IMG/VR virus record: IMGVR_UViG_2734482777_000019
Length of the DNA stretch: 40,224 nt
Direction: 5' to 3' (one strand)
Source of the DNA: a virus
Lineage: Duplodnaviria > Heunggongvirae > Uroviricota > Caudoviricetes
Positions 1,475 to 34,114 of the stretch are shown piece by piece. The position numbers were made by a program, and so were the translations under genes. Within the stretch, counting starts at the first letter, position 1. The number at the start of each line of letters is the position of its first letter. The notes beneath the pieces were generated by a model, which did not search any database, was not told where the DNA came from, and was given only the letters and a program-made list of their open reading frames with translations.

Positions 1475-3316
1475 ATGACAGTTACAACAAAGTTCAGAAA
1501 TGACATTAATGGCCTAAGAGCTATAGCTGTTATAAGTGTTGTTTTGTTTCATTTTTCATCTTCTATAATTCCAGGCGGATTTATTGGTGTAGACGTGTTT
1601 TTCGTCATATCTGGATACTTGATGACATCAATTATATTCAGAGGGATAGAATCTAATTCTTTTTCGGTTATTGACTTCCTGAAAGCAAGGGCGAGACGTA
1701 TAGTTCCTGCTCTCGTTGCAGTTGTATTCCTTACACTGATTATTGGTTATATGTTCTTTGAGCCTATGACATTACAGATCATAGGAAAACATTCTGCGGC
1801 AAGTCTAACATTTATTTCCAATATTATTTATCAGTCTGAATCAGGTTATTTTGATGATACATCAAAGCAAAAATTTTTACTGCATACATGGTCGCTATCA
1901 GTTGAATGGCAATTCTATATAATTTACCCGATAGTGTTACTTGCACTGTCAAAGATATTTTCAATAAAAAATCTTAAAATATTTGTTGTTGCGATTGCTG
2001 TTGTTTCTTTTGCATGGTGCATTTACATAACCAGAACTGATCCCGTGTCATCATACTTCAGCATCGCATCAAGAGGTTGGGAAATGATGCTGGGAGGCAT
2101 TGCTTTTCTGTTCCCGTTTAAAGGTAGCGATAAATCAAGACGAGTTTTGGAATCAGCAGGGCTAATATTGATCGCGCTGTCTCTCGCGTTCATGAGCGAA
2201 AGCTTGGCGTGGCCTGGCTACATTGCGTTTATTCCAGTATTCGGGGCCTATATCTGCATTCTTGCTGACAATAAAAGAACCATTCTTTCTGGTAAGATCA
2301 TTGAAAAGCTTGGGCTCTGGTCCTATTCAATATACTTGATCCACTGGCCGGTAATCGTCTTTTGCGAGAAGACGGGAATTGAGTTAAATATTTTCTGGTA
2401 TCTGGCTGGTGTAGTGTCAGCCTCAGCACTACTTTATAGCCTTGTAGAGAAGCGTCGTGGTTATGGATGGGGATTGCTTTTCTGTTATTGTGTATGTCTC
2501 GCAGCCGCTTTGTATGTCAATGTCGACGGGGTAAGTAGTCGCATTAAGAATCCTGATTACCATCTTAATAAAGACCTGTTCCGCCGGGCTTACGAAGGAC
2601 ATTTATGGATGCAGCCTGGAGAGAATGTAGACTACTTCAACGCTACAGAAAAAGACTTTGACTACATCATACTTGGTGACAGCCATGCAAGACACTATTT
2701 CGCTTTCTTCAAACAAAGCGGTCTTAAAGTAGCATCGCTAGCTGCGGATGGTTGTAAAGTTACAAAGCATTTTATGGGGCCGCTAAACTATTCTGAAAAA
2801 CTCAGAAAGATTTGCGAAGGAAGATATAAGAAGGCCGTTGAATTCATTAATGCCCATCCTGGCAAGAAAGTCGTATGGTTGCAAGCGTGGTATACTGGAA
2901 AGGTTGGAAACCCGCTAACGACTGACAATTCTTATAAAAATGATTTCATCAGTGAAATGAAATATTTTCTTGATGATATTAAAGGCTCTAACAGCCAGAT
3001 ATATATTGTTGGTGATACCCAGGGAAGCAAGGAAATCATGTATCAATGCCTGGCATCACAAGACCTTCCTATTAATAAATTATTCAGAAAATGCAATGAG
3101 TTTCAGGATTATATAGAGCCTGCAATGAATAGCAGATTTAAAATATTTGCTGAGCAATATCAAAAAGTTCATTTCGTTGACCCTAGCCCAGCAATATGCA
3201 GTGATGGCAAATGTAGAGTGGTTGATGGAGATATGCCTGTTTACACGGATAACTCTCATCTTACAAAGGTATGGTCAGTTAAGGTTGGTGAATATATCTT
3301 TAGCAAGATAAAGTAG
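1475..3316 (+). CDS. Membrane acyltransferase (acyltransferase-3 family with C-terminal SGNH-like domain), O-antigen acetyltransferase-like moron
   Basis: 613-aa ORF with hydrophobic multi-TM N-terminal two-thirds and soluble C-terminal domain; AT-rich relative to flanks; preceded by AT-rich intergenic region; lies between int and tailspike where P22-like phages carry serotype-conversion genes. Confidence 0.8.
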   Translation: MTVTTKFRNDINGLRAIAVISVVLFHFSSSIIPGGFIGVDVFFVISGYLMTSIIFRGIESNSFSVIDFLKARARRIVPALVAVVFLTLIIGYMFFEPMTLQIIGKHSAASLTFISNIIYQSESGYFDDTSKQKFLLHTWSLSVEWQFYIIYPIVLLALSKIFSIKNLKIFVVAIAVVSFAWCIYITRTDPVSSYFSIASRGWEMMLGGIAFLFPFKGSDKSRRVLESAGLILIALSLAFMSESLAWPGYIAFIPVFGAYICILADNKRTILSGKIIEKLGLWSYSIYLIHWPVIVFCEKTGIELNIFWYLAGVVSASALLYSLVEKRRGYGWGLLFCYCVCLAAALYVNVDGVSSRIKNPDYHLNKDLFRRAYEGHLWMQPGENVDYFNATEKDFDYIILGDSHARHYFAFFKQSGLKVASLAADGCKVTKHFMGPLNYSEKLRKICEGRYKKAVEFINAHPGKKVVWLQAWYTGKVGNPLTTDNSYKNDFISEMKYFLDDIKGSNSQIYIVGDTQGSKEIMYQCLASQDLPINKLFRKCNEFQDYIEPAMNSRFKIFAEQYQKVHFVDPSPAICSDGKCRVVDGDMPVYTDNSHLTKVWSVKVGEYIFSKIK

Positions 3317-3318
3317 TT

Positions 3319-3348
3319 AAAAAGCCTCTACTCAGAGGCTTTTTCTTT
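3319..3348. terminator. Bidirectional intrinsic terminator between convergent acyltransferase and tailspike genes
   Basis: Hairpin agcctct-actc-agaggct flanked by A-run upstream and T-run downstream, so a U-tract follows on either strand. Confidence 0.55.
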
Positions 3349-5149
3349 ATATCACCATATATCTGAAGCTTGCTCCGCCTGCAGCTGGAGAACCTGACTG
3401 CGTAGCAAGGACAAGACTTCCGTTTGATTGACTTAAAACATATGCATTTGCTGCTGCAGCTGAAGCATTTGCTGGGTGAATCACAACTTGTGAATAAGGT
3501 GTTATATTTTCATCAACCAGTGTTGCTGAAGCTACACCACTCAATCCATTGAATGCCTTCATCACCATCTTTTCAGTTGCAGAAAGAAGGACGTTTCTTA
3601 TTGTAAATGTACCTCCTCCAGTTGGGTTTAGCTTTGGAATGAGTGCACTTGTTACGGTTGTAAGATTGCAATTTGTCAAGACAAGATTATTTTGATAACT
3701 GGTAACCTGTGCAATACCTGAATTAACAACAGTGGCATTATTCACGGTGTTATCTGTAGCACCATCCGATTGGTTAACACCACTTTTTCCTGCAGCATTA
3801 ATATAAGCTGAAAGAACTCTGGTATTTGCCGATCCTGCCGCAAAGTTAATACCGTTTTGCTCGCAAGTATTAACATAAACACTCTCAATTGTGGATCCTG
3901 TTGTTGGCAGTCCAGCATGTCCAAAGTTAATACCGTGGAAAAATTGCGTGTTGGTAGATATCAACTTTCCTGCCATGCTCCAGCGGCAATCAAAACCAAT
4001 GCCTGATGCTGATGCAAGATCCACAGATGCATAAAGCAAACGGTTATAATCACCACTAAATTGAATACCAGAATAAGCGTCATCACCAGAAGCGCCTTGT
4101 GCATGCCCTAGTGCCGCAATACTTCTATTAGTTTTGTAAATATAAAACGCTTCATGCCCCCACGATTCAATCCGATCAACGATAAACTTTGAGTAATGGC
4201 ACTGATAGAAAAACAGACAACCAGAGCCGTCATTGCGGATTCCATCTGGTGATGGTGCACTTATAAAAGTGCGAGGGTAGTAATGGTCATGGACATAATG
4301 AGCGTAAAAATCTACGTTCTGACACTCTGTCAGATAGACAAGATGGGTTCCAATCTGTCCTGATTGTCCTGCTTTATTACCATCAATCTCATTAATGTGA
4401 ATTATTAGACCAGAGTTATTACCTGCTGCGTAAAGTAATCTGTCAAAGTCGACACATCCAGACGGTAATTTGAGCTTCCCCTTTACAATCACTTTTTTTG
4501 CTGAAGAAAGGTTGAGATTTTTTGCAACGAGAGTAAACCCTTCGGGAACAATCAGCATACCTATATCGTCAATCATCTTCTGAGCTGAGATTGATGATTC
4601 AACTTCGCTCACAGCTCCCCAATCTGCAACTGTAAGATTCTCTGCATTTTTTTCATGCTGAGTCCTTTTTACTGCTCCGGTATAAGGTTGAATAACAGGT
4701 ATCATTGCATCTCCGTCGCTGATACCTGCACCAATCAAATCTGCAACAGTGTGACCAGGACAAAGACCTATTAATGAGGCTCCATCATCACCAGACAACT
4801 CCTGTCTTAGCTGATCTGGATCATACTTCAACACGTTTGGATAGTTGAACTGCTGTGTACCATAAGCATCGTACACAGCCATAGAATGGCCTTGCACGGT
4901 AACGAATTTGGCAATCTGTCCGTTATATACAGGATAACCAGCAGCGTTAATGATGATTGGTTGCGAAACAGGAACGTGAGAGCCGTCTTCGTTCTCCACA
5001 TAAACCTGAATCTGGTTTTCAGGATTTACCGGATCAGTGTCAATTTTACCGATATAAATTTTGCCATTGGCTACGGCTTTAAAAGAACGCGCCATAGTGA
5101 AGAGTTGCGAAGGCATCGATACGATCACATTGGCTGTAATGTCTGTCAT
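3347..5149 (-). CDS. Tailspike protein with P22-type N-terminal head-binding domain and divergent receptor-binding domain
   Basis: N-terminal ~110 aa ([11 protein letters not shown]...VLKYDPDQ) closely match the P22 gp9 head-binding domain; the remainder is Gly/Ser/Asn-rich, beta-helix-like and not P22-like. Confidence 0.9.
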
Positions 5150-5327: not shown

Positions 5328-6206
5328 TCAGTAGTTATGTACTGAAGGAGGCAATTCTTTATTCTTAAGTCTCATCCATGCGGAAAGATTCGTTGGTCCG
5401 TCTGGCTCATTAATATCAACATCTCGTGTGTGGTTTATTAAAACGTCTCTCGCCATTCCGATAACATACGAGAATTCATGACCGTAGTCGTAGCATCTGC
5501 CGGAATAGTTCGATTGAATTTGTTTTAGCGCCGGATACAGTTCGCGGAATAATGCCTGTGAGCGGTTGGCATAATCCCATAACCATACAAAGCTGTTTGC
5601 TTCTTTTGCAGAAAGCTCGTTGGTTTTCTTCTCTTGTTTGCCAATGAACTCACCTTCAAGCACTACCCTGTGGATGTACTCTACGGCCAGCGGGATTTGT
5701 TCAATTGAAAGTTCATCAATGCTGTCAATACCAAAACGCTGATGAACCATATTGTATGCATCGTCATAGCGAAGTCCTTTCTTTCCTACCAGCATGTTTA
5801 CTGCATCGCGTAGCGGTGTTCTTTCCTCAACAGTGGTTTTCTTTCCTTTTACATACTCGCCATGTTTGCGAATTGAAGGCAGAACTTCTGCTGTTACCCA
5901 CTTGCGGAATTTGTGCGGGACTGAACCTTTATTGACTGCATCGCGGCAGCGCAGAACCAATGTATACATACCTGATTCGCTCACAATGCTTAGATTCTGC
6001 TCACCACCAAGGGTGTAACTTAAAGTTACTCCCTTTTCATCGTCATCAAGTGCAGTAAGCGCCTTGCGTGAGTTAGTCAAATCTAAAGCATCACAAACAT
6101 CTTTAGCTACAAACCACGGCTCACCGCACTTGTTGATGACGCGGATTTCACTGTCGCCGAATTTGAAGATGGTGAAATCGTTTTGTGCCTTTGCTATACT
6201 TTTCAT
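5328..6206 (-). CDS. ant: Antirepressor (Bro-N domain family) of the immI region
   Basis: 292-aa ORF with Bro-N-like N-terminus ([16 protein letters not shown]); located directly downstream of arc as in P22 immI. Confidence 0.8.
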
Positions 6207-6274
6207 GTCAATATTTCCTAATCCGATTTGTTGATGCCGAAGCCCTGACTGTTACAGCAGTTGGGGCTTCAACT

Positions 6275-6436
6275 TTACGCACCAATGCGCCCTTCCTTCT
6301 TAAAGCTTTCCATTACTCGCTGATAAATCTCAGAATTAACAGACCGACCATTTTCTTCCGCCACCTTGCGTACCAAATCCAATACTTCTTTAGGCCACCG
6401 CAAATTGAACTGTGGCATTTTGCTCATTCCTTTCAT
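6275..6436 (-). CDS. arc: Arc repressor (ribbon-helix-helix)
   Basis: Internal Met gives 53 aa MKGMSKMPQFNLRWPKEVLDLVRKVAEENGRSVNSEIYQRVMESFKKEGRIGA, near-identical to P22 Arc; the longer track ORF would start inside the Arc operator. Confidence 0.95.
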   Translation of the reverse strand: MKGMSKMPQFNLRWPKEVLDLVRKVAEENGRSVNSEIYQRVMESFKKEGRIGA

Positions 6437-6452
6437 GTTCACCTCACAATAT

Positions 6453-6469
6453 AGGTCCACGGTGGACCT
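6453..6469. promoter_or_regulatory. Mnt operator (perfect 17-bp palindrome aggtccacggtggacct) within Pant
   Basis: Perfectly symmetric sequence matching the P22 Mnt operator, located between arc and mnt. Confidence 0.8.
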
Positions 6470-6478
6470 ATTGAGAAT

Positions 6479-6499
6479 ATAGTAGAGTGCTTCTATCAT
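6479..6499. promoter_or_regulatory. Arc operator (atagtagagtgcttctatcat)
   Basis: Matches the P22 Arc operator sequence on the opposite strand; immediately upstream of the arc start on the minus strand. Confidence 0.8.
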
Positions 6500-6526
6500 G
6501 TCAATACACTAACTTGGAGTGATGGC

Positions 6527-6781
6527 ATGGCTAGAGATGATCCGCACTTTAACTTCCGTATGCCTTTGGAAGTAAGAGAAAAATTGAAATTAAGAGCCGA
6601 GGCTAACGGAAGGTCAATGAACTCTGAGTTATTACAAATCGTTCAGGATGCACTATCAAAACCATCACCGATTACAGGATATCGCGACGAAGCTGAACGC
6701 TTGGCTGATCAGCAGGCTGAGCAGTTCAAGGCTATAGTGTTTGAGACACTTAAAAAGATTTATGAAAAGGATTTGAAATGA
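6527..6781 (+). CDS. mnt: Mnt repressor (maintenance of lysogeny, RHH family)
   Basis: 84-aa ORF MARDDPHFNFRMPLEVREKLKLRAEANGRSMNSELLQIVQDALSKPSP..., near-identical to the P22 Mnt N-terminal domain. Confidence 0.95.
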   Translation: MARDDPHFNFRMPLEVREKLKLRAEANGRSMNSELLQIVQDALSKPSPITGYRDEAERLADQQAEQFKAIVFETLKKIYEKDLK

Positions 6782-7113
6782 GATTTCTATCACTGTTCTT
6801 GTTAGCAGTTGTCTCTTCTTCCAGTGCTGAGCTGCGCGAGCTTCAAACGGGTAATGACCTTCTTTACAACATTCAACAAGGTAAAAAGGGTGATGATTTT
6901 TCATCGCTTTACATTACTGGATATTTGCGCGGAGTAACTGACTCATTGATACTAATTGGTTCTCTATGTCCTCCTGATGGCGTTGACATGTATCAATACA
7001 CCGATATCGTTGAGAAATATCTAAACAAAAACCCAGAATCAAGAAATGAGAGTGCAGTTATACTAACCGCCCTAGCAGTAGGAAAAACATTTCCGTGCAA
7101 AAAGAATCAATAA
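6778..7113 (+). CDS. Hypothetical secreted protein (cleavable signal peptide), translationally coupled to mnt
   Basis: 111-aa ORF; start overlaps the mnt stop (ATGA); N-terminus MRFLSLFLLAVVSSSSA is a typical signal peptide. Confidence 0.6.
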   Translation: MRFLSLFLLAVVSSSSAELRELQTGNDLLYNIQQGKKGDDFSSLYITGYLRGVTDSLILIGSLCPPDGVDMYQYTDIVEKYLNKNPESRNESAVILTALAVGKTFPCKKNQ

Positions 7114-7128
7114 CAATAAGGGCTTAAA

Positions 7129-7518
7129 ATGAAATTGATTATAGCAATGGCTTTCCTTGTCTTCTCGTTTTCTGTCTCAGCAGAGTGCTGGGTCGTTGGA
7201 GATATGCACGGAATAAGCTATTCAGAACGAAATAATTTTCAACCGGAAGAAGATGGTTTTAGTGGAACATTCATCATTAAGACAAACGGTGAAGATGCCA
7301 GTATCACATATTCTGGGACGGATGCGGGCGGCATGGCTTACAAAGCATTGTCTAAAAACTCCATCATTGGAATCGGCGCGAATGGCGAAACTCAACGAGT
7401 TATCGACTCATGGGTAATACATCCTAATGGAACAGTTTTAATGTCGAAAACCATTTCTGGTTATGGGAATATGGATTCAACCAAAGCTTTTGTTGGAAAA
7501 GTAAAAAGAAAATGTTAA
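7129..7518 (+). CDS. Hypothetical secreted/periplasmic protein
   Basis: 129-aa ORF with signal peptide MKLIIAMAFLVFSFSVSA followed by ECW; 15-nt spacing after the previous gene, same operon as mnt. Confidence 0.6.
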   Translation: MKLIIAMAFLVFSFSVSAECWVVGDMHGISYSERNNFQPEEDGFSGTFIIKTNGEDASITYSGTDAGGMAYKALSKNSIIGIGANGETQRVIDSWVIHPNGTVLMSKTISGYGNMDSTKAFVGKVKRKC

Positions 7519-7542: not shown

Positions 7543-9384
7543 TTACTGCTGTGTTGCCTCAGTAGCAAGCAGCGGCCTGATGGCATTTGCAGCGTTACTC
7601 AACGCTCTTTCATAGGCTGGCGTTCCAGCTTTAGTGTTTGCCAGACGTAAGAGAGCATTCCTTGCTGCTTTGGACTCATACAAACGCATCATTGCACCAA
7701 AGCCAGCCTCAAGCCCCATTGATACACCAAGAGTCGCAGTTGCGCCAATCGTCCTTATCCTGTTGGCTTGTGATTGCCCCGTCTGAGTTACTACATTTGC
7801 GGTGTCTGACCTTGCTGTTTGCTGTAGAACTTCATGAAGAGCATCAAGCTCTTTCATGTGCTTTCCAGAAAAAATAGTGTTGTAAATTTCACCGCCTGAC
7901 TGAGATTTCAGCTTATTAACTTCAGTGATGAACTTGGCTGGAGAGTCACCGGCCTTTTCCGCTATTTTGCTGACGTAAGCTGCACGCATAGCATCTTTCC
8001 CTTTATCATCCAGGGCGCTCCATATTCGTTTCACGTCAGATGGTTTTCTGCTTAATACAACGGTATTTATAAGTTCAGGACTGGCTTCACTGCTTGCCTT
8101 GTTGAGCTTGTTAGCAATGTTTTTATTAAGCACCTTATTATAAACGTTTGCATAATCGGAATTTGCTTTAAGGTATTTTGCTGCGTCTGATGCACCGAGG
8201 TTTTTAGCAACTGCGTTACGAAGGTCTTTTGACATTGCATTCTCTACCATATTGGTAGCTGCTTTTGCCTGGTTGGGGAAGACCATAGCATCTCCCTGAA
8301 CATTAGATCTAAATGCTGTTCTGTGCTGACGCAAGAGATCAAACGTAACATCCAAATCAGTTGCAGGGTTTGCTAATTCTTCACGTAGGTTACGCAAGGA
8401 TGTAAGCAGGCTTTGATTGGCAGACGTCCCAAGCCGTTCCTGTCTTGCGATCGCTGTATTCAGAGCATTCATGGTATTTGTGGTATCAACTGCGGCATTA
8501 CCCATTTTATTGGTGACGTCATTGATAACAGCGCCAGCGGCATCCTTCCGCCCCCTTAACGTGGTGGTAAGAGATTTCACCACATCATCAGGGTTGTACT
8601 CACCAAAACGGTCAAAATAATTACTTACCAGCTTACTACGCGTTGCATATTGCTCCGCTCGCTTTGAGCCTGTCCCGAGCAAAGCCCCCTCGGCATCCTG
8701 AGTTAGGCCGCGAGTGAAAGCATTTTTCGGCGGGATAACATCAGATGTCATTGGTGTCACGCCCATCGATTCTGATGTGGCAATTTTCTTCGCCACTTCT
8801 GGCGCAATATCACCTTTTATAGCCGTTATTCCACGCCCTATTCCCTTTGCTGCTGCGGAAAGAACACCCTGAGTGGCAAGGTTAACTCCGGCATTTTTAG
8901 CTGCATTTTGTGCGAAATCGCCTTTCTGATTTGCGGCCTCTGCCAGTGATCCAATAGCCATGCTTCCTGCCGTTCCAACTCCTGGAACTAAATACCCACC
9001 AATTGTTTCACCGGCTTGCGCGTAGGGGTCTGTCGGTCTGTCTACTGGACGATAAACATCATCCAAAACCTTGGGTCCACCAAGCCCCTGACTGATTGCA
9101 TTAATCAGACTTGCGCCGCCCTGCAATACGTCAAATGGTATGTTTACCAGACCACGACCAGCCTGTTCTGCAATTTGCCCTGCACTTTGACCACCAGTGA
9201 GCCAATCGCCAGCTTGTTGGATCAATGATGGTTCTTCCCGTGTTGGTGCATTATTGGCCTGATTAACTGTTTGTTGCTGAACAGCCTGACCAGCAAAATA
9301 CTCATCAATGGCGGTGCCAATATCTTCGGTGCTCGTACCATCAGGAAAGGTAAATGTCTTACCGTTTGCAGTTACTTTCATCAT
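7543..9384 (-). CDS. Ejection (internal/injection) protein, P22 gp16-like
   Basis: 613 aa (P22 gp16 is about 609 aa), last gene of the gp7-gp20-gp16 ejection cluster; Ala/Gly-rich. Confidence 0.85.
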
Positions 9385-23401: not shown

Positions 23402-23477
23402 TGGTGCTGGTTAACGGACTTGAACCGCTACCCATTCGCTTACAAGGCGACTGCTCTACCATTGGAGCTAAACCAGC
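23402..23477 (-). tRNA. tRNA-Thr (anticodon UGU)
   Basis: 76-nt cloverleaf GCTGGTT..GCTC/GAGC D-arm, anticodon loop CTTGTAA, T-arm GGTTCAAGTCC, acceptor AACCAGC, discriminator A, encoded CCA; one mismatch at the base of the anticodon stem. Confidence 0.7.
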
Positions 23478-23482
23478 ATATT

Positions 23483-23557
23483 TGGCGGGACAGCGTGGAC
23501 TCGAACCACGATAAGAAGGTTAACAGCCTTCCGTAATGACCTTTATACGACTGACCC
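23483..23557 (-). tRNA. tRNA-Asn (anticodon GUU)
   Basis: 75-nt cloverleaf: acceptor GGGTCAG/CTGTCCC (1 mismatch), anticodon stem GAAGG/CCTTC, loop CTGTTAA, T-arm CGTGG-TTCGAGT-CCACG, encoded CCA; loop and T-arm match E. coli tRNA-Asn. Confidence 0.75.
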
Positions 23558-32493: not shown

Positions 32494-33210
<717 letters not shown>

Positions 33211-33241
33211 TTCAACGCAGCAAAAAAGGGTAATTCAATTA

Positions 33242-34114
33242 ATGGAACATGATGATTTACAGCAATTACCATCCCCATTCGCAAAATGGAAGGGGAAGAT
33301 CGACTTAGGTGGTGAAAGTATTGATTGCTATGTGCTTGACACTGGACATCGTGTTATAGCTTTGCGAGCAACTGTAAAAGCAATTGCCAATGCGGAGTCA
33401 GGAGACCTGGCTAAATTTATTGGCGTTAGCTCACTTAATGGCTTTATAGACAAAGACTTAGTCCTGGCCGAACTCATAGAGTTTTCCATACCAGGAACCC
33501 AATTTAAAAGCCAAGGACTTAAGACTGAGCAATTTGAATTGATTTGTCGCGGCTATGTACAGGCGCTATACAAAGGCGCGCCATTGACAGATAGACAGCG
33601 AGAAATAGCAATTAAATGTGCTGTATTAACAGCAGGTTTAACCAGGACTGGGTTAGATGCTCTAATTGATGAGGCTACTGGGTATCAGTATGAGCGCGCA
33701 GAGGATGCTCTCCAAGTAAAACTCAGGGCGTTCATCGCTGAGGAACTAAGAGCATGGGAAAAAACATTTCCTGATGAGTTATGGGAAGAATTTGGTAGAT
33801 TGACAGGATGGAGTACCCCATTGCAATCAAGGCCCAAATGGTGGGGGAAATTAGTTATAGAGTTAATTTATGACACTCTTGACGAAGATGTGGCTAAATA
33901 TCTTAAAGAAAACAAGCCTGCGGCAGGAGTTCACTGGCATAGACAGTTAACCGAGAACCTAGGTGTAAGGCAGCTTGTATCAAGGTGCTGGGAGGTTATT
34001 GGGGTCGCAAAAACATGCGACACCATGCATGAGCTAAGAAGTCGAGTTGCTCAACACTATGGAAAGAAACCTGTTCAAATGACAATGTATTTACCGGAAA
34101 AAGAAATTAAATAA
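33242..34114 (+). CDS. Hypothetical protein in the rexAB-equivalent position downstream of cI (candidate lysogen-expressed exclusion/defence gene)
   Basis: 290-aa product from Met 31 nt after the cI stop; no resemblance to RexA/RexB; AT-rich relative to cI; followed by an intrinsic terminator before OL/PL. Confidence 0.65.
   Translation: MEHDDLQQLPSPFAKWKGKIDLGGESIDCYVLDTGHRVIALRATVKAIANAESGDLAKFIGVSSLNGFIDKDLVLAELIEFSIPGTQFKSQGLKTEQFELICRGYVQALYKGAPLTDRQREIAIKCAVLTAGLTRTGLDALIDEATGYQYERAEDALQVKLRAFIAEELRAWEKTFPDELWEEFGRLTGWSTPLQSRPKWWGKLVIELIYDTLDEDVAKYLKENKPAAGVHWHRQLTENLGVRQLVSRCWEVIGVAKTCDTMHELRSRVAQHYGKKPVQMTMYLPEKEIK

Follow-up and report, generated by a model that had tools for sequence, protein, structure and literature searches.

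Predicted periplasmic cargo genes of the Rap1a/Tai4a and Hex families behind mnt in a P22-like prophage of Escherichia coli

Cargo genes on the repressor transcripts of temperate phages have been described previously, namely, rexAB of phage lambda and hex of phage 434. The present analysis concerns two open reading frames (ORFs), designated ORF1 (111 amino acids, aa) and ORF2 (129 aa), that directly follow the repressor gene mnt in a stretch of 40,224 nucleotides (nt) of viral DNA (IMG/VR record IMGVR_UViG_2734482777_000019; the whole stretch is hereafter called the window). The window is a P22-like prophage of Escherichia coli, and its segment 6200–7600 matches, with 100% identity, the chromosomes of E. 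coli C (NZ_CP029371) and of several further strains. The protein families to which the two products were assigned are likewise already known.

Rap1a, of the first family, is a periplasmic dimer of five-helix subunits, in which a disulfide joins Cys78 of the alpha2-alpha3 loop to the C-terminal Cys122; the dimer obstructs Ssp1, a type VI effector, at its active site (PMC3852654). The name of the second family, Hex, stands for “heterologous exclusion”, and hex is co-transcribed with cI from PRM in lysogens (PMC3564112). The same paper states, with reference to Susskind and Botstein (1980), that P22 is excluded by Salmonella strains that are lambda imm434 lysogens, but not when hex carries a mutation. 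In P22 itself, the region that corresponds to the locus analyzed here has the order 16 / sieA / orf59a / mnt, in agreement with an earlier note on the window that had placed sieA between gene 16 and mnt. The 2024 SieA study, in which Hex is unmentioned, reported sieA in just 22 of 66 P22-like phages (PMC10883804).

The balance of the evidence leans, with modest confidence, towards a lysogen-expressed envelope-defence cassette behind mnt that would combine an orphan Rap1a/Tai4a immunity gene with a Hex-family gene for periplasmic phage exclusion.

Anatomy, coding status and predicted export of ORF1 and ORF2

The stop codon of mnt (TGA, 6779–6781) overlaps the start codon of ORF1 (ATG, 6778–6780) in an ATGA at 6778–6781, and 15 nt separate the stop of ORF1 from the start of ORF2; all three genes are on the plus strand. 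These coordinates agree exactly with those from which translational coupling had been proposed in the earlier note. A Shine-Dalgarno-like motif is found 6 nt before each start, AAAGGA (6766–6771) for ORF1 and TAAGGG (7117–7122) for ORF2. Relatives were surveyed in 80 IMG/VR loci with Mnt relatives, pooled with additional loci; many of these are near-identical copies, and the counts given here and below are not independent. Among the 18 Rap1a genes found directly after mnt, 16 overlap its stop codon, including 65–79% identical ones from Serratia and from a second E. coli lineage. Therefore, the stop-start coupling is not an accident of the window sequence, and the mnt-coupled arrangement, whose conservation had been proposed as a check, is kept in relatives. 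In the mnt variants with coupled cargo, the final Mnt codons (…K-D…, AAGGAT) serve as the Shine-Dalgarno sequence of the next gene (window 6762–6781; locus L002, 9990–10004; locus L097, 4985–5003); P22 Mnt has another ending (…KKTT) and no coupled gene.

The identification of mnt was confirmed by matches to the Pfam families Arc and Repressor_Mnt, and its first 227 nt show 82% nucleotide identity with P22 mnt. The control region upstream aligns almost base for base with the annotated Oarc, Omnt, Pant and Pmnt of P22. In the promoter scan, Pmnt was located on the plus strand at 6471–6499 (TTGAGA-17-TATCAT) and Pant on the minus strand at 6504–6476 (TTGACA-17-TATATT). Because of this near match to the P22 operators and promoters, the P22 logic very probably applies by analogy, so that Mnt made in the lysogen from Pmnt would repress Pant. 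No terminator-like site was found in a scan between mnt, ORF1 and ORF2. Since the three genes form a tight operon behind Pmnt without such a site, it can reasonably be inferred from the regulation of P22 immI that ORF1 and ORF2 are expressed in the lysogen. As for a terminator after ORF2, the sole plus-strand candidate falls inside gene 16 and the folding of the region is no better than that of shuffled sequences (z −0.97); this candidate was rejected.

Both ORFs match phage protein families whose function is unknown, namely, phrog_3870 (E 1e-44) for ORF1 and phrog_2651 (E 2e-60) for ORF2. Between diverged lineages, the proportion of nonsynonymous differences (pN) in the two genes was 0.14–0.36, against a largely saturated proportion of synonymous differences (pS) of 0.65–0.91, and the ratio of nonsynonymous to synonymous rates (dN/dS) in unsaturated pairs was 0.10–0.36. 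ORF1 and ORF2 are real genes under purifying selection.

Signal peptides were called by a crude Sec/signal peptidase I (SPI) rule (K/R in the n-region, an apolar h-region, and small residues at −3 and −1). In the window, 68 ORFs of at least 80 aa start with ATG, and only four of them pass this rule: ORF1, ORF2, the Rz spanin, and one likely false positive. The earlier statement that both ORFs begin with signal peptides is borne out by this result. The predicted cleavage sites follow SSA17 (ORF1) and VSA18 (ORF2). No L-x-x-C lipobox is present at the leader ends (SSSSA/E in ORF1 and SVSA/EC in ORF2, with the slash at the cleavage site), and neither protein has a hydrophobic segment past the signal peptide. 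Both are predicted to be soluble periplasmic proteins and not lipoproteins, and the envelope location in the lysogen that had been suggested for them is consistent with this prediction and with co-expression on the P22 model.

Family assignment of the two products

ORF1 matched the Pfam family Rap1a (PF18602) with 55.3 bits at a gathering score of 27.7 (E 9.7e-15), its residues 24–107 being aligned with profile positions 1–90 of 90. In RefSeq, the identical gene is named ‘Rap1a/Tai family immunity protein’. When a profile of ORF1 relatives was compared with the PDB, Agrobacterium Tai4 (6ijf) and Serratia Rap1a (3zfi, 4bi8) were retrieved with the FPC(K) cysteine aligned, and the alignment puts both ORF1 cysteines onto structural cysteines of Rap1a and Tai4. 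These residues, C64 and C107, do not vary across the family alignment, and their spacing is 43 residues versus 44 in Rap1a. The AlphaFold2 (AF2) model of ORF1 (predicted local distance difference test score, pLDDT, 80.8) is all-alpha; the mature part contains helices 25–36, 40–59, 71–84 and 93–104 and a short turn, and the model places C64 in the alpha2-alpha3 loop and C107 in the C-terminal tail. All eight ORF1-family sequences pass the Sec/SPI rule. ORF1 very probably belongs to the Rap1a/Tai4a family.

No effector gene was found beside ORF1, whose neighbours are mnt, ORF2 and gene 16 in the window and likewise in all related loci, and for this reason ORF1 is best read as an orphan immunity gene on a prophage. 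The missing adjacent effector is compatible with the family membership; orphan immunity genes are known. Judged by its sequence relatives, ORF1 probably works as a type VI immunity protein, and it points to defence against bacteria and not against the entry of phage DNA. The search for related loci with the ORF1 alignment returned one genome locus and no close relative linked to type VI secretion.

ORF2 had no match in Pfam, NCBIfam, PADLOC or the PDB. Its AF2 model (pLDDT 94) is an all-beta barrel of eight to nine strands, and fold searches with this model gave generic small barrels only. An exhaustive profile search of 1.84 billion proteins yielded 140 cluster representatives of the ORF2 family, nearly all of 120–140 aa. 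Large multi-domain matches to the ORF2 profile (P0131, P0158, and others) were weak and represented PKD/Big-type repeat proteins; these were set aside.

In the tblastn analysis of phage genomes, full-length matches to ORF2 were 434 Hex, Sf6 gene 38, and genes of HK633, HK446 and Sf101. The match is the gene directly after cI in 434, HK633, HK446 and Sf101, and a recent 434 record labels the Hex gene ‘repressor protection protein’. Hex scored 129.6 bits against a profile of 78 family sequences and 70.3 bits against a profile of only five close ORF2 relatives; because of the latter score, the relationship between ORF2 and Hex is considered solid at the level of sequence. There is little doubt that ORF2 belongs to the Hex family.

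Cysteines C20 and C129 of ORF2 are conserved. In the 78 aligned members of the family, an apolar leader is universal (78/78), a K/R n-region is present in 77/78, and an AXA-type site one residue before the invariant cysteine is present in 67/78; the mature part always contains either two or four cysteines. Such leader and cysteine features are typical of periplasmic disulfide-bonded proteins, and, together with the structure model, they lead us to think that the Hex family acts in the periplasm. A role of ORF2 in phage exclusion may be proposed tentatively from the properties of its family, with somewhat less than even prospects.

The superinfection exclusion that the earlier note had considered plausible for both proteins is thus retained in part: the 434 Hex homologue and the sieA position speak for it in the case of ORF2, whereas ORF1, as a member of the Rap1a/Tai4a family of type VI immunity proteins, does not fit it. 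Neither ORF1 nor ORF2 shows similarity to SieA or to a virion protein, and both cluster apart from P22 SieA in all-against-all BLASTP.

Elsewhere, members of the ORF2 family are found directly after CI-type repressors, between lysis and terminase genes, and beside another gp16 gene. In addition, a Serratia siphophage-type prophage (locus L102, 6001–7822) carries a Hex-family gene at the tail-cluster moron site, beside rexA and rexB homologues, which makes two exclusion-type cargoes in a single insertion site.

The slot between mnt and gene 16

The interval from mnt to gene 16 is mosaic and measures 13 to 2298 bp. In the 84 loci with a definable slot, the gene adjoining gene 16 is a Hex-family gene in 40 and sieA in 9, and most of the others have other small membrane proteins in this place. 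In 20 of the 40 Hex-family loci, the 30–47 nt before the start are 94–100% identical to the sequence that precedes sieA in P22. This shared segment is the sieA 5' leader, and the longer matches include part of the annotated promoter; the leaders were counted by DNA comparison, as the in-frame ‘KTKEVG’ motif undercounted them. Because of its place next to gene 16 in these loci and of the sieA leader in half of them, the Hex family can be regarded, by sequence and position, as a positional alternative to sieA.

Other cargo, unrelated to Rap1a, is joined at the stop codon of mnt in its place: a 193-aa protein, which overlaps the stop in 11 of 11 cases; a ClpP-like protein; a secreted protein of 105 aa; and a lipoprotein of 150 aa with an LSGC lipobox (locus L005). 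The slot can also contain YafO-toxin-like and PIN-domain genes. The mnt stop codon is thus a site of cargo exchange, and the whole interval up to gene 16 is an exchange hotspot, in which defence-type cargo (SieA, Hex-like, Rap1a, toxin-antitoxin-like and PIN) is swapped at fixed junctions.

The operon of the window has several relatives. In the second E. coli lineage, an mnt-Rap1a-Hex-like operon encodes proteins 65% (ORF1) and 49% (ORF2) identical to those of the window. Two tandem Rap1a genes follow mnt in a Serratia fonticola prophage, and one follows it in Serratia sp. A decayed prophage of Silvania confinis (locus L097, 4900–6570) contains the last 31 codons of mnt and intact Rap1a and Hex-like genes beside an integrase, with a 268-aa remnant of gene 16; the Rap1a/Hex-like pair seems to be retained there as the phage decays.

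Phage Emek (95.9% identity) and 122 copies in E. coli prophages match ORF2 only from nt 50–52 of the gene onwards, and upstream of this joint the mnt-Rap1a module takes the place of the sieA-type leader. Since identity to the ORF2 genes of sieA-leader type begins at approximately nt 50, the mnt-Rap1a module appears from the sequence comparison to have been joined to the body of ORF2 by recombination within the signal-peptide codons. Among 5426 complete E. coli genomes, ORF1 is present in 26 and ORF2 in 147 (~3%).

The positions of the genes and control elements around mnt are given in Table 1. The start of the 53-aa Arc is an internal ATG of a listed 74-aa ORF. In homologous loci, Pfam Phage_P22_gp16 was found at the position that matches the gene 16 homologue of the window.

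Table 1. Features of the window in the region of mnt
Feature	Position	Strand	Evidence or remark
Tailspike	3347–5149	−	
ant, antirepressor, target of Mnt repression	5328–6206	−	Pfam Bro-N and P22_AR_C; phrog_245 (anti-repressor Ant), E 8e-112
sar, antisense RNA of immI	6208–6274	+	Rfam RF00262, 65.6 bits at a gathering score of 43
arc, divergent from mnt	6275–6436	−	Pfam Arc, E 3e-30
immI control region: overlapping divergent promoters Pant/Pmnt with Arc and Mnt operators	6437–6526	none	
mnt, ribbon-helix-helix repressor, maintains lysogeny by repressing ant	6527–6781	+	Pfam Arc, E 4e-28; Repressor_Mnt, E 1e-11
ORF1, 111 aa, Rap1a/Tai4a-family, predicted periplasmic immunity protein	6778–7113	+	Signal peptide codons 1–17 at 6778–6828
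ORF2, 129 aa, Hex-family, predicted exported beta-barrel	7129–7518	+	Signal peptide codons 1–18 at 7129–7182
Putative recombination joint within the ORF2 signal-peptide codons	7178	+	Identity breakpoint
Gene 16 homologue (DNA ejection protein), convergent with ORF2, end of the cargo slot	7543–9384	−	RefSeq ‘DNA transfer protein / P22-gp16 family’

Three further features of the window were observed. A 613-aa fusion of acyltransferase-3 and SGNH domains is encoded at 1475–3316 (plus strand), between the integrase (1–1158) and the tailspike, and looks like an O-antigen acetyltransferase conversion gene. Two adjoining phage transfer RNA genes were found with Rfam on the minus strand at 23405–23477 and 23486–23557. 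A P63C-domain ORF of 322 aa (33146–34114, plus strand) overlaps and directly follows the gene of a repressor composed of HTH_3 and Peptidase_S24 domains (32497–33210); it is possibly another cargo gene of a lysogen operon, and other P22-like phages carry defence genes at this place.

Proposed function, alternatives and comparison with known systems

According to the favoured explanation, mnt of an E. coli P22-like prophage would have acquired two cargo genes that are transcribed from Pmnt in the lysogen. ORF1, coupled to mnt translationally through the ATGA, would be exported by the Sec pathway, take a disulfide-stabilised helical fold of the Rap1a/Tai4a type, and most likely bind and sterically block, in the periplasm, a peptidoglycan amidase of the Tae4 class delivered by a competitor's type VI secretion system (T6SS), so that the lysogen would survive the attack without owning the weapon. 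ORF2 would be an exported small beta-barrel with a disulfide between its first and last strands whose most likely activity is the exclusion of heterologous phages, with the periplasm as its site of action; its family fills the slot, and in some relatives also takes the 5' leader, that in P22 belongs to SieA, the injection blocker.

Several points weigh against this explanation. As for ORF1, the PDB matches to the characterised Rap1a and Tai4 are weak (E from 0.012 to 1.5). Immunity proteins of this kind are effector-specific, and the similarity of ORF1 to the characterised ones is low. Rap1a/Tai4-like genes are also present in two unrelated phages, DSL-LC04 (locus L096, 2932–3258) and Dartukuta (locus L104, 1836–2198), in one of them within a block of small early-type genes, and Dartukuta is annotated as a Bacillus phage, where type VI secretion is not expected. 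As for ORF2, its identity with Hex is just 29% (100% coverage, E 3e-7, tblastn), the exclusion phenotype of Hex is known second-hand through the citation in PMC3564112, and at least one distant four-cysteine member of the family is chromosomal, amid housekeeping genes. The sole biochemical study of Hex, considered below, gives it a cytoplasmic role. Finally, the assignment of both genes to Pmnt is carried over from P22, and a promoter-like site lies within ORF1 at 6983–7010 on the plus strand (TTGACA-16-TATCGT, 10 of 12 matches), approximately 120 nt 5' of ORF2, which it could drive separately from Pmnt.

The alternative that survives best, although still unlikely, is that both genes confer immunity to interbacterial toxins, with ORF2 directed against a second periplasmic effector in a two-gene orphan immunity islet. 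The linkage of ORF2 and Rap1a genes is tight in two lineages diverged to 49–66% identity and in the decayed prophage, and in S. fonticola the second position is held by another Rap1a gene. One distant member of the ORF2 family is preceded by a Sel1-repeat gene and stands among small ORFs that succeed one another on the same strand, and the chromosomal member mentioned above has no phage link. However, none of the ORF2-family members examined adjoins a toxin or type VI gene, and the phenotypes of Hex, the only characterised member, are phage-related.

A lower probability is given to the function published for Hex, under which ORF2 would be a cytoplasmic protector that binds an S24-type repressor, blocks its RecA-stimulated autocleavage, and lowers spontaneous induction; this is quite improbable for ORF2. 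Deletion of hex raised spontaneous induction 30-fold in a recA-dependent manner, and in vitro a fragment termed sHex (E43–N103 of a 158-aa ORF) kept the repressors of 434 and P22 from RecA-stimulated cleavage (PMC3564112). The window does contain a repressor with a Peptidase_S24 domain. On the other hand, the family-wide signal peptide, the AXA-type cleavage site, and the paired cysteines of the 78 aligned members argue against a cytoplasmic location. The 158-aa ORF is the annotated 134-aa ORF extended by 24 upstream codons, and, because of this, E43, the N-terminal residue of sHex, is the residue right after the predicted signal-peptidase site (ANS/E); judged by the model, sHex would be about the first half of the predicted barrel. 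Overexpressed full-length Hex was lethal, and export of Hex is nowhere discussed in that study (PMC3564112). Many family members are far from repressor genes, at moron positions near tail or lysis genes or beside gene 16. As the deletion of hex borders directly on the 3' end of cI, it may affect the repressor level in cis. The periplasmic features, as predicted from sequences and the model, are in conflict with the published cytoplasmic anti-RecA mechanism.

It is more doubtful still that both proteins are superinfection-exclusion factors, ORF1 being a Rap1a fold recruited against the cell-wall hydrolase or an ejection protein of an incoming phage. The cassette does sit in the neighbourhood of sieA and is probably co-expressed with a lysogeny gene, and the Rap1a-like genes of other phages, including the one annotated as infecting Bacillus, would be accommodated. 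But the characterised Rap1a/Tai4a members all neutralise T6SS amidases of the Tae4 type, a phage enzyme as the target of a Rap1a fold is not known, and ORF1 resembles neither SieA nor any of the PADLOC defence models. That ORF1 and ORF2 are chance or decaying frames without function, a view favoured only by their shortness and by the lack of any curated family that includes ORF2, has a negligible probability in view of the purifying selection, the strong PHROG matches, the 140 family representatives of ORF2, the confident structure models, and the operon arrangement conserved in several genera.

Beyond the cassette explanation, a wider proposal can be formulated, which is speculative and in its full extent rather doubtful. 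The Hex family, including 434 Hex, would consist of Sec-exported, disulfide-closed periplasmic beta-barrels that block the entry of P22-like and possibly other phages and serve as soluble alternatives to SieA in the same slot; the anti-RecA activity would be indirect or an artefact of the half-barrel. In the window, such a protein would be joined to an orphan type VI immunity gene in the Mnt operon, and the envelope would be armed from a single lysogeny promoter against phages and attacking bacteria alike.

If ORF1 works like its family, a common type of temperate phage would hand its host immunity to a type VI cell-wall toxin, and a direct link would follow between lysogeny and the survival of warfare among bacteria, for instance in the gut, an environment in which effectors of the Tae4 class are used by Salmonella, Enterobacter and Serratia. 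Through the link to Hex, a protein present in approximately 3% of complete E. coli genomes, as well as in 434 and Sf6, two classical phages, gains a named family that is experimentally tractable. The periplasmic location of Hex, as predicted from the signal peptide and cysteine pairs, would overturn its sole published mechanism. Four observations appear to be new: the presence, within the immI operon of P22-like phages, of a putative gene for type VI immunity that is coupled to mnt; the recognition of a widespread “hypothetical protein” as a Hex relative; the alternation of the Hex family with sieA at one slot; and the family-wide features that suggest export of Hex. No paper was found on prophage- or mnt-linked Rap1a/Tai4 or on Hex beyond PMC3564112, nor one describing an immunity gene inside the immI operon, the Hex-sieA alternation or Hex export, in a search that left out most subscription journals and is weak evidence of absence.

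In comparison with the Rap1a/Tai4a systems (Ssp1-Rap1a of Serratia marcescens and Tae4-Tai4 of Agrobacterium), ORF1 has in common a signal peptide with predicted cleavage, small size with only helices in the model, and the two disulfide cysteines at corresponding positions; unlike them, it resides on a temperate phage without an adjoining effector, behind a phage repressor promoter and coupled to mnt, and the similarity is low. Orphan type VI immunity genes on mobile elements are also represented by the acquired interbacterial defence islands of Bacteroides. The prophage-like element Aux3 of Vibrio cholerae (PMC7721734) likewise bears and spreads an immunity gene able to protect a weaponless host, whereas here a single gene lies within the immI operon of a functional-looking P22-like phage.

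With 434 Hex and Sf6 gene 38, ORF2 shares an invariant N-terminal CW, an ETW-type motif, and a C-terminal GxC. Both hex and, presumably, ORF2 belong to a lysogen operon headed by a maintenance repressor, and hex is coupled to cI in 434 by the same ATGA overlap as ORF1 to mnt in the window. The differences are that ORF2 stands behind Mnt (immI) and not behind CI and is the third gene, whereas hex is the second, and that the published mechanism of Hex is cytoplasmic, whereas the sequence features of the ORF2 family argue for the periplasm. With P22 SieA, the ORF2 family has in common the position between mnt and gene 16, the 5' leader in the 20 loci, and, probably, expression from the prophage. 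SieA, which is polytopic and resides in the inner membrane, blocks the gp16/gp20 conduit (PMC10883804), whereas ORF2 is a predicted soluble exported barrel without sequence similarity to it. The cI-rexA-rexB operon of lambda similarly places accessory defence genes on the transcript that maintains lysogeny; unlike the cassette proposed here, RexAB acts at the inner membrane, through abortive infection, and neither RexAB nor Sim of phage P1 is expected to be related to the cassette in sequence. Sim, an exclusion protein that is processed and periplasmic, sets a precedent for soluble exclusion factors exported by Sec.

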